Below are positions 9 through 1,079 of a stretch of 32,000 nt of DNA, piece after piece. Every line of letters begins with the position of its first letter. Position 1 is the stretch's first letter. A program made the position numbers and the translations under genes. The stretch is from Planctomycetales bacterium (GTDB taxonomy: Bacteria; 4484-113; JAFGCY01), in NCBI GenBank assembly GCA_022646745.1, contig CP060262.1:2730001-2762000 (forward strand), given 5' to 3'. The notes under the pieces were generated by a model. It was not told where the DNA came from. It ran no database searches and saw only the letters and a list, made by a program, of their open reading frames with translations.

Positions 9-1079
9 ATGACCTCCAACCCGATGGCAACCGGCGGTGTGCTCAGCTCCCGGGATCCGGGTGGCTCGCAGGATACCGGCATGATCTCTGACTTCAGCTG
101 GAAGCAGCTTGAAGGCCCCTACAAGGGCGGCGTTAATGTGGCTGTCGGTGATGTCAACGGTGTCACGACCTTCTTCGTCCCCCAGCCGGAGGATGATGAG
201 CTGGCCCAGGCGATCATCATCAGGATCCGCAAGCGTCCTGACCTGCTGATGCAGGAGTGGGATTCACTGATCGATGAGCAGATGGAAGCGCTGCAGAACA
301 ATCCTCTTTACGAAGGCGACAACGGCACGGGTGAGAACCCGCTTTACGAGGGTCGGCAGGCTGGTGGTGACGGTGCCGCTGCGGAAGGTTCAAGCAACCG
401 CCGTGCCACAGGTATCGTCCACCGCGACATCGCAGCGCGCAACATCCTGCTGATGGGTGCAGATGCCTACTTCGTTGACAGCAATGGTAGTGGCATTGAC
501 AACCTGCTTGGATTGCCGAGTGGTTCCGCAATGGAAACCGGCCACAAGAACTGGATCGACCTTCTTTCCGTTGGAGACGGATCTTCCTCATCGAGCTCGA
601 CGGATGATGTCTGGGTAGACGGTGTGATCATCACTGCTGAAATCAGCCTGGAAGTGTCAGGGGAAGATTTCGGCCGTTACATGCTCCGCTTCCCGGTTGA
701 TAACAGCAGCATGGGTCACGAAGGTACCTGGTTCTTCATGCCTGAAGTGGATGACGAGGTCACAGTCGCTTTCCAGGAAGGTGATCCCGACCAGCCTATC
801 GTTATTGGCAGGCTGTATGCCGAGGATGCCCCCAAGGGTTCGATCCCGCTTACCGGCGGTAAGATGAGTGTCGGTTGCAGTTTCGTGCTGGATGGCAGCC
901 GAAGCGCTGATGACGGCGGCGCGGTCTATCTATGTGCAGCGATTGATCCTGACACGCTGGAGCTGGCAGTGCTCATTTCCAGCGATACACAGATGGAATC
1001 CCGCAGGTTCCAGACCCTATCCAACGTATCCAGGGCCAGCCACGACGCTGCCATGGGTTCCATTCGCAACATGAAGTAG
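9..1079 (+). CDS. gp5/gpV (VgrG-type) OB-fold spike-like protein with an atypical ~190-aa N-terminal extension; possibly 5'-truncated because the frame is open to the window edge
   Basis: Residues ~203-270 (FMPEVDDEVTVAFQEGDPDQPIVIGRLY) match the conserved core of the phage baseplate V / gp5 / VgrG OB-fold. A poly-Ser linker (GDGSSSSSSTDD) precedes it. The N-terminal part carries 2x NPLYEG and IVHRDIAARNILL. A strong terminator follows. Hand-counted GC is ~52-53%, against ~60-65% in neighbouring genes. Confidence 0.55.
   Translation: MTSNPMATGGVLSSRDPGGSQDTGMISDFSWKQLEGPYKGGVNVAVGDVNGVTTFFVPQPEDDELAQAIIIRIRKRPDLLMQEWDSLIDEQMEALQNNPLYEGDNGTGENPLYEGRQAGGDGAAAEGSSNRRATGIVHRDIAARNILLMGADAYFVDSNGSGIDNLLGLPSGSAMETGHKNWIDLLSVGDGSSSSSSTDDVWVDGVIITAEISLEVSGEDFGRYMLRFPVDNSSMGHEGTWFFMPEVDDEVTVAFQEGDPDQPIVIGRLYAEDAPKGSIPLTGGKMSVGCSFVLDGSRSADDGGAVYLCAAIDPDTLELAVLISSDTQMESRRFQTLSNVSRASHDAAMGSIRNMK

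Follow-up and report, generated by a model that had tools for sequence, protein, structure and literature searches.

The window analysed here is a stretch of 32,000 nucleotides of contig CP060262.1 (assembly GCA_022646745.1, positions 2,730,001 to 2,762,000, forward strand) from a Planctomycetales bacterium. Its left end carries the last part of a giant gene whose product contains two copies of the hexapeptide NPLYEG. These two copies were found to be the distal half of a cassette of about 48 residues which recurs in proteins of unrelated type, and the native setting of this cassette was shown to be the tail of eukaryote-type single-pass receptors. We tentatively read the cassette as a docking mimic of the NPxF/Y type that works independently of phosphorylation and targets a eukaryotic grazer or host. 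This functional step is one that we infer, and rather less than even odds are given for it.

The peptide LQNNPLYEGDNGTGENPLYEGRQ is the translation of window positions 291-359 on the forward strand, in the frame of an open reading frame (ORF) that enters at the left edge and has its stop at 1077-1079. Positions 300-353 read NPLYEG-DNGTGE-NPLYEG, with an N-to-N offset of 12 residues, and the tandem copies that had been proposed from the letters of the DNA (referred to below as the sequence-only reading) were thus confirmed by translation. The two copies do not represent a recent DNA duplication, as four of their six codons differ and all of these differences are synonymous; the fraction of identical codons was 0.33, compared with 0.44 expected from the codon usage of the gene, and the earlier argument for conservation at the level of the peptide was borne out. 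A non-overlapping repeated hexapeptide arose in 926 of 200,000 shuffles of the 358-residue fragment (0.46 %). The pair, in the form NPL[YF]E[GS], has been retained in two distant orthologues (overall identity 48-59 %), one of which (P0003) has SPLY at the first site.

The complete cassette follows the pattern (2-5 hydrophobics, often ending W/F)-R-x-R-K-R-P-[DE]-L-L-x-x-E-W-D-x-[LI]-[IL]-D-[DE]-(~7)-N-P-L-x-(8)-N-P-L-x. Its DLLxxEWDxLIDE segment is predicted to form a helix of acidic and amphipathic character. An exhaustive phmmer search with the 358-residue fragment returned 104 matches, about 35 of which cover fragment residues ~61-130 only and all share the cassette, and a census by regular expression counted 28 matches in 27 proteins (at least 27 protein clusters). 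In the alignment of these cassettes (A3), P6, W13, P28, N39 and L41 were invariant, and the N-to-N offset was 12 in 13 members and 11 in seven. Identity of the window cassette to its counterparts in the two giant orthologues was 75 % (33/44) and 61 % (27/44), compared with 59 and 48 % for the whole C-terminal fragment, and the cassette lies within the best-conserved C-terminal ~330 residues of the giant protein. Selection acts on the cassette peptide, since the copy on contig L008 has many synonymous-position differences, the contigs bearing the cassette range from 33 to 77 % in guanine-plus-cytosine (GC) content, and codon agreement between copies in a single gene is close to expectation (same-codon fractions mostly 0.33-0.63, with KRQHKP up to 0.86; expectation from codon usage 0.33-0.50). 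Gene conversion or recent duplication as the means of keeping the copies alike was rejected because these fractions are close to the codon-usage expectation.

The placement of the cassette varied: it immediately follows the signal peptide in P0010, lies mid-protein in lipoproteins (P0015, P0024, P0026, P0044 and P0084), occurs within RHS repeat regions (an ORF on contig L019, and P0013) and stands at the C-terminus of P0008. In P0045, P0083, P0066 and P0013 the element RKRPDLL..EWD..LID is kept and one or both NPL motifs are absent. With the 51-residue cassette as query, phmmer retrieved no PDB sequence at thresholds up to E 10. Viral contigs scanned for the cassette yielded no relatives, and a full-text literature search for cassette strings gave a match only in a table of Bartonella BepD motifs (see below). 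A word-indexed homologue search, whose index is too sparse for short cassettes, returned one match with the 358-residue fragment and two with the A3 profile. The single-sequence AlphaFold2 model was unusable (mean predicted local distance difference test score 33.5), suggesting a helix only at residues 83-98, before the first NPLY.

In P0016, P0035 and P0105 the cassette comes directly after a transmembrane (TM) helix (19-residue segment, Kyte-Doolittle hydropathy 2.1-2.3) and ends the protein. The contig encoding P0016 has AATAAA 10 nucleotides after the stop codon and looks like a eukaryotic mRNA. The P0016-type ectodomain is Cys-rich ('CGVCGG') and its relatives include P0119 and P0124. In P0119 the TM helix is followed by the tail VNPHYAGEDGKSINPLA, the offset again being 12, and in P0124 the ectodomain, TM helix and VRKRHP are followed by the start of a protein kinase (GAGAFGTVYRGEW). 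The kinase domain of P0124 goes on in two more short ORFs on the same contig, which would be the pattern expected of a gene with short introns. Bacterial copies of the cassette retain just the last few hydrophobic residues of the helix, and the copy in the window is without a membrane anchor, the 19-residue segment upstream having a hydropathy of 0.27 as opposed to 2.1-2.3 in P0016 and P0035.

The cassette is followed in the window by a copy of a Tyr-kinase catalytic loop, GIVHRDIAARNILL, whose matches in PDB were EGFR, Fes, Eph and ZAP-70 (E 0.04-2) and which is conserved in all three giant orthologues. The window, both giant orthologues and a family of proteins of about 220 residues with PEP-CTERM or MYXO-CTERM ends (P0011, P0012, P0017, P0031 and P0043) all show the succession of cassette and G[IV][IV]HRDIA[AT]R(N). 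In P0043 the catalytic loop is followed by GPIRWMAPESL, the P+1 loop of the activation segment, and the Pfam PK_Tyr threshold is passed over profile positions 115-177 only. Tail, catalytic loop and P+1 loop in this succession reproduce the order of a receptor kinase, with the juxtamembrane tail first. The window does not encode a complete kinase domain: no Gly-rich loop, VAIK or DFG accompanies the loop, and no DFG was found after HRDIAARNILL.

The resemblance to integrin beta tails put forward in the sequence-only reading proved to be measurable. In a search over 24,736 models, Pfam Integrin_b_cyt (PF08725; gathering threshold 23.4 bits) was the top or only match for seven of the 10 cassette peptides (profile positions 25/27-44, E 0.007-0.17), the family cutoff not being reached by the window copy. 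Arrays of NPLY in P0019, P0025 and P0102 scored higher, a segment of P0102 reaching 34.5 bits (E 1.6e-8), above the cutoff. Comparison of A3 with seven integrin beta tails by hhalign gave a probability of 88 % over 20 columns, the aligned part of the cassette being QNNPLYEGDNGTGENPLYEG, and the beta1 and beta3 tails, checked against PDB chains, both have the 12-residue register. Both have two NPx(Y/F) turns in a 12-residue register, located after a basic stop-transfer segment and a helix of about 20 residues, and 'GENPIYKS...NPKYEG' of integrin beta1 is comparable to 'GENPLYEG' of the cassette. Unlike integrin beta, the window copy has no aligned HDR(R/K)E helix, no preceding TM helix and no integrin ectodomain, belongs to an exported bacterial protein and comes from a family in which the aromatic residue is variable. 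It neither stands directly after a TM helix nor has an aligned KLLxxxHDR(R/K)E start, a likeness to LLMxx[HW]D being seen by eye only. The likeness is therefore that of a shared two-turn module in the same register, which may work like an integrin tail, and does not suffice for membership of the integrin family. PTB and FERM-F3 domains, including those of talin, kindlin, Dab and GULP type, recognize NPxY and NPxF tails without phosphotyrosine, and integrins beta2 and beta7 use NPxF.

Tails with NPxY that engage talin have been reported for SibA of Dictyostelium and suggested for the mannose-binding protein of Acanthamoeba (PMC12686525). By description, these are single-pass protist receptors with short NPxY tails, the same setting as in P0016, P0035, P0105 and P0119. 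The parent family described here differs from them in having the CGVCGG-type Cys-rich ectodomain and in including receptor kinases.

The sequence-only reading had also proposed a phosphorylation module of the Src/EPIYA type and had asked whether homologues conserve both Tyr residues. They do not: the three giant orthologues have NPLY/NPLY (window), NPLF/NPLF (L007) and SPLY/NPLF (P0003), and across the family the aromatic position is Y in 10, F in five, A in five and another residue in seven members at site 1, and F in 14, Y in four and another residue in four at site 2. As Phe occurs twice in the L007 orthologue, once in P0003 and at site 2 of most members of the family, the function that has been conserved cannot be Tyr phosphorylation. 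The cassette can do without the Tyr hydroxyl, and a phosphotyrosine signalling or effector motif is unlikely. The hexapeptide NPLYEG is itself among the phosphorylated motifs of Bartonella BepD, at Y114, Y176, Y293 and Y355 (PMC2999339, Table 1). BepD and the EPIYA-type effectors thus share with the cassette an identical hexapeptide and the repetition of motifs, whereas their motifs are phosphotyrosine-based and they are delivered by type IV (T4SS) or type III (T3SS) secretion systems; here Phe can substitute for Tyr, export is of the Sec type and no such system was seen nearby.

An exhaustive protein search showed that the C-terminus of P0002 is exactly the 358 residues encoded in the window. 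P0002 corresponds to NCBI MCB1219403.1/UNM07337.1, annotated 'type VI secretion system tube protein Hcp', and its gene adjoins the same ClpP and transketolase genes. Six metagenome contigs (L001-L006) were obtained when the neighbouring ClpP was looked up by exact match. Where they overlap the window their DNA is 100 % identical to it, and one of them (L001:3-7409, +) lengthens the ORF to at least 2468 codons. The two distant orthologues are an ORF of 4049 residues in the GTDB metagenome-assembled genome AC1.30 (L007:3506-15655, +), syntenic with clpP and transketolase, and P0003 of 5355 residues. At its N-terminus the L007 orthologue has a signal peptide of the Sec type, with an n-region, a hydrophobic core and ALA/AG (...HARIASLFAVMLFAFLSQNALA/AGYIKLGDIKGEST).

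The giant proteins matched Pfam and NCBIfam models in partial pieces only. Hcp and the gp19 tail tube were each represented by five stretches, with a best coverage of positions 1-81 of 129 for Hcp and 29-90 of 134 for gp19. In addition there were a single Phage_base_V stretch, a Tox-PAAR-like trace, an FG-GAP repeat, 15-17 residues of Tyr kinase and a 31-residue piece of EF-Tu (profile positions 41-73; E 7e-8 with NCBIfam). The PDB matches of the EF-Tu piece were 57 EF-Tu sequences and nothing else (best E 1.8e-8). Repeated peptides of the DUF1559 pseudopilin (LLLPAVQKVREAAAR, HSGGVNVLMGDGSVHFI and AILPYIEQ), as well as GPVRWMAPESL, D[HY]NSSRSNKTS, GHVTVLK and others, were recognized by eye.

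The carrier had been described in the sequence-only reading as a spike-domain protein that is injected. The first part of this description holds in reduced form. A gp5/VgrG-type OB fold is indeed present at fragment residues 205-285 (36 % identical over 106 columns to the VgrG P0018 by BLASTP), and tblastn with this region matched plasmid tssI genes; it is a shortened, almost complete remnant with a 17-residue deletion. The view that the VgrG match was a mere 30-residue snippet was dropped because BLASTP shows nearly the whole shortened fold. No gp27-like hub (Phage_GPD) was detected in the 358-residue fragment, in the last 2468 residues of the giant protein or in the 4049-residue orthologue, and the scanned parts of the giant proteins contained no beta-helix typical of functional spikes. 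VgrG/TssI genes would be expected in or near a type VI secretion (T6SS) or contractile injection system (CIS) cluster and without a signal peptide, whereas the orthologue has a Sec-type signal. No T6SS, CIS, T3SS or T4SS genes were present in the 31 kb downstream of the giant gene in the window or in the 3.5 kb upstream of the L007 orthologue. Hcp/TssD is a single complete domain of ~130-170 residues, as opposed to five partial stretches in a protein of 4049 residues. The carrier therefore resembles VgrG/gp5 and Hcp in its OB fold and in its many partial Hcp and gp19 tube segments, and differs from them in lacking a complete Hcp or gp19 domain, a gp27 hub and a nearby T6SS/CIS locus, in its signal peptide and in its size of 5053 residues. 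The Sec-type signal, the flanks free of injection-system genes and the mere OB-fold remnant speak against injection. The public 'Hcp' annotation is misleading, the carrier being a Sec-exported mosaic and not a canonical spike or Hcp.

The same repertoire was found in dozens of unrelated proteins, secreted or surface-located and from other phyla, including Bacteroidota-like lipoproteins (one of them on a contig of 33 % GC), the outer-membrane-barrel proteins P0019 and P0102, and the RHS proteins P0013 and the L019 ORF. RWMAPES, HNSSRSN, HVTVLK, DDWQGE and YGQCWVF recur among the matches though absent from the 358-residue query, so the co-occurrence of cassettes is not an effect of the choice of hits. 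Not every piece is a bare snippet, as P0022 possesses a real transglutaminase core. None of the class-specific cassettes is represented in Pfam or NCBIfam. It is conceivable, at something short of an even chance, that these proteins form an undescribed class of exported or surface 'peptide-cassette mosaics' of which the NPLYEG cassette is one element, implying either a hitherto undescribed 'reader' or general mimicry or decoy directed against bacterial and eukaryotic targets. Carriers of such a class may be Planctomycete-like, Bacteroidota-like, PEP-CTERM- or MYXO-CTERM-bearing and RHS-encoding bacteria, and its repertoire may consist of near-exact copies, 10-50 residues long, of the most conserved segment of unrelated families, held by selection at the peptide level in genomes of 33-77 % GC. 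Possible sources are switch I and G3 of EF-Tu, the catalytic and P+1 loops of Tyr kinases, tails of integrin-like type, the active sites of transglutaminases and zincins, the pseudopilin helix and strands of Hcp, tube and VgrG proteins.

In the docking-mimic reading, the cassette copies the end of a TM helix together with the cytoplasmic tail that follows it in eukaryotic single-pass receptors of protist type, a tail with the build of that of integrin beta. As a docking mimic it would engage adaptors of the grazer or host that have PTB or FERM-F3 domains and resemble talin, kindlin, Dab or GULP, in competition with the target cell's own adhesion or engulfment receptors. Docking is proposed to be phospho-independent because NPxY/NPxF turns are ligands of PTB and FERM-F3 domains that do not need phosphotyrosine. 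Several observations weigh against this proposal and keep it tentative. The giant protein is Sec-exported, whereas the partners proposed for it reside in the cytosol, and nothing was found that would bring it into a eukaryotic cell. The co-resident copies of EF-Tu, pseudopilin, Hcp and tube proteins have bacterial sources and are not explained by a mimic directed at eukaryotes, and some members of the cassette family come from sediment metagenomes with no obvious host. At site 1 the aromatic position is occupied by A, L, H, S, T or Q in many members, which would weaken binding by PTB/F3 domains. The window cassette scores 13.8 bits against PF08725 (E 0.047), under the 23.4-bit cutoff of the family, and hhalign aligns the NPxY-NPxY columns only, leaving out the membrane-proximal helix. 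The chief alternative, possible if rather doubtful, is that the cassette is a general-purpose extracellular peptide belonging to a common repertoire, such as a recognition, assembly, cross-linking or processing tag, which is read by a bacterial or environmental partner and whose integrin look reflects ancestry only. This would suit the varied placements of the cassette, its association with copies from bacterial sources (EF-Tu 41-73, DUF1559 pseudopilin, Hcp and gp19), the members that keep RKRPDLL..EWD..LID without one or both NPL motifs, and the variable aromatic position. No reader was identified for such a tag, however, and the neighbourhoods of P0043, P0010, P0005 and the L007 orthologue share no partner gene, whilst a partner that binds NPxF/Y would still be in keeping with the strict register of 11-12 residues and with the prevalence of Y/F at the two sites.

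The remaining explanations were considered much less probable than the docking mimic. Were the motifs phosphotyrosine sites of the EPIYA/BepD kind on an injected effector, they would be substrates of host Src-family kinases and would recruit SH2/PTB proteins; the exact hexapeptide in the BepD list, Tyr at both sites in the window and the VgrG-type OB fold 90 residues downstream would agree with this. It is nevertheless very unlikely in view of Phe at both sites in L007, Y/F in P0003 and F at site 2 in 14 of 22 members, together with the Sec signal of the orthologue, the lack of T3SS, T4SS, T6SS or CIS genes nearby and the missing gp27 hub and beta-helix. A decaying, functionless relic of a horizontally acquired fragment of a eukaryotic receptor-kinase gene would agree with the order of tail, catalytic loop and P+1 loop, which mirrors a receptor kinase, and with the missing ATP-binding lobe and DFG. 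Such a relic is improbable, since the cassette is 75 % identical between orthologues as opposed to 59 % for its surroundings and is kept in at least 27 clusters at 33-77 % GC. Purifying selection on the peptide is indicated because conservation of the cassette exceeds that of its surroundings while its synonymous sites are randomized. Given the abundance of G, S, D and N in the protein, a meaningless or low-complexity repeat might arise by chance; conservation of the cassette in orthologues and in unrelated proteins, and the rarity of a repeated hexamer in the shuffles, refute this explanation, which is scarcely credible.

The features located in and immediately after the gene are collected in Table 1.

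Table 1. Positions of features of the giant gene and its 3' flank in the window
Feature	Position	Strand	Basis or description
C-terminal part of the giant gene	1..1079	+	last 358 codons and stop; product P0002, 5053 residues
FG-GAP-repeat-like GGVNVAVGDVNGVTT	126..170	+	sequence similarity; counterpart elsewhere in orthologue matches Pfam FG-GAP and FG-GAP_3
Whole cassette	210..353	+	AIII (remnant of TM-helix end), RIRKRP, DLLMQEWDSLIDEQMEALQ (predicted helix), NPLYEG, DNGTGE, NPLYEG
First NPLYEG	300-317	+	codons AAT CCT CTT TAC GAA GGC; counterpart of membrane-proximal integrin beta NPxY
Second NPLYEG	336-353	+	codons AAC CCG CTT TAC GAG GGT; counterpart of membrane-distal NPxY/NxxY
Copy of Tyr-kinase catalytic loop GIVHRDIAARNILL	411..452	+	Pfam PK_Tyr_Ser-Thr positions 120-136 only
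N-terminal-Hcp-motif-like GHKNWIDLLSVG (HK..I..LS.S.G)	540..575	+	comparison by eye with Hcp-like segments of the same protein
Reduced gp5/VgrG-type OB fold	615..833	+	Pfam Phage_base_V, E 1.5e-8
C-terminal helix cassette QMESRRFQTLSNVSRASHDAAMGSIRNMK (to the stop)	990..1076	+	same C-terminus in P0013, P0019, P0020, P0034, P0039, P0046, P0059, P0060, P0075, P0076 and P0094
Intrinsic-terminator-like hairpin and T run	1108..1129	+	closes the transcription unit of the giant gene before clpP

Other members of the repertoire showed similar recurrence. A near-exact copy of EF-Tu switch I (beginning FSSIDNA[SP]) was present in L001:3-7409, L007:3506-15655, P0002 and P0003, in a part of the orthologues that is only ~29 % identical. 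The C-terminal peptide QMESRRFQTLSN.S.A.HDAAM.SIRNMK, directly before the stop, also ends many unrelated proteins, including some of 76-160 residues, and P0046 has a double-glycine bacteriocin-type leader (ELSDAELEQTVGG); the peptide may be similar to the C-terminal helix of T3SS needle subunits. The sequence [AT][QD]D[HY]NSSRSNKTS occurs as five repeats in each giant protein (L001 and L007), as three in tandem at the N-terminus of P0019, and in P0066. It contains D-x-N-x-S, the extended bacterial N-glycosylation sequon, and a second N-K-T; no parent family was found for it.

Among the RHS proteins, P0013 (2052 residues; Pfam RHS repeats) and the ORF L019:194-6406 (+) carry between them RKRPDLL..EWD, RWMAPEAL, an Hcp loop, HRDIAARN, the EF-Tu elements GITINTTHVEY and RHYAHVDCP, the reprolysin-like HEMGHNLGMCHD, and GGLLVKGGKNPGG. 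Several of the cassettes of P0013 stand behind the RHS core, the usual position of a toxin domain. P0014 and P0020 are 'compressed' VgrG-like proteins, in which the conserved VgrG motifs QYGESDMNF..RMMEDKG, GRIKVQFPFD and the OB-fold motif keep their proper order but span ~130 residues rather than ~450, and P0020 also has HELSHTIQQG, which is DUF4157/eCIS-core-like. P0015, P0024, P0026, P0044, P0084 and L014:2906-4375 form a lipoprotein-like family of ~500-650 residues with the cassette in mid-protein, one being on a contig of 33 % GC. P0024, P0026, P0044 and P0084 share the C-terminus QFG[SI]GTR[ST].(AG/VS)Q..[SN]K[AP]ELL up to the stop, and some members of the family also have YGQCWVFSG, the active-site motif of transglutaminases, or HFVDDWQGE, to which no parent was assigned.

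Three or more submissions supplied the runs or assemblies (SRR12358675/6, ERZ27309238/083 and ERZ28655229/803) that contain the six contigs identical to the window, with identity spanning up to 3.3 kb; these contigs represent either one widespread clone or the same samples re-assembled. The 31 kb downstream of the giant gene in the window encode ClpP, transketolase, QueA, SerRS, TrkAH, aspartokinase, MoxR, an FGE-sulfatase protein and others, which are housekeeping or unrelated functions, and an Rfam scan of the window detected no RNA family. An esterase and an ankyrin-repeat protein are encoded upstream of the L007 orthologue; the latter (L007:443-2335, -; 630 residues), 1.2 kb upstream, consists almost wholly of ankyrin repeats and is eukaryote-like. 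At 18157-21015 (-) the window encodes a full FG-GAP/ASPIC-UnbV repeat protein of 951 residues, in the same genome as the FG-GAP-like snippet of the giant gene. ORFs of 431, 197 and 429 codons at 8138-9433 (+), 13708-14301 (-) and 24659-25948 (-) had no Pfam family at the thresholds used. For the ORF at 22355-23491 (+), the Pfam match was Mito_fiss_Elm1 (mitochondrial fission ELM1-like; E 3e-32). A name of this kind is unusual in a bacterium, and the ORF is probably one of the bacterial glycosyltransferase-like relatives of that family.

Mimicry of short motifs by bacterial proteins is already known. Eukaryotic-like and short-linear-motif mimicry in host-associated bacteria likewise involves secreted proteins with copies of eukaryotic motifs, and an ankyrin protein accompanies the L007 orthologue. 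The present cassettes differ in being 10-50 residues long, near-identical across phyla and combined by the dozen, with copies from bacterial housekeeping and secretion proteins included. What is new is a tail-plus-helix cassette of ~48 residues in place of a motif of 4-6 residues, its proposed phospho-independence, its link to a kinase-loop copy and its spread over several phyla outside the classical pathogens. The peptide-cassette mosaic pattern may be new as a class, and a keyword search of the literature on giant mosaic Hcp, tube or pilin proteins returned nothing relevant.

Whatever the function of the cassette, a giant gene has been mis-annotated as 'Hcp', and a recurrent repertoire of short cassettes exists that no curated family library describes. 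Such cassettes can produce false domain annotations (kinase, EF-Tu, Hcp and integrin) in metagenomes, and their conservation across phyla needs explanation. If the cassette is a docking mimic, free-living and gut bacteria beyond the classical pathogens would imitate the cytoplasmic tails of receptors with which protists or animals carry out adhesion and engulfment. This would constitute an unrecognized means of interfering with grazing or phagocytosis, and the family would provide a natural Tyr/Phe series for phospho-independent NPxY recognition.

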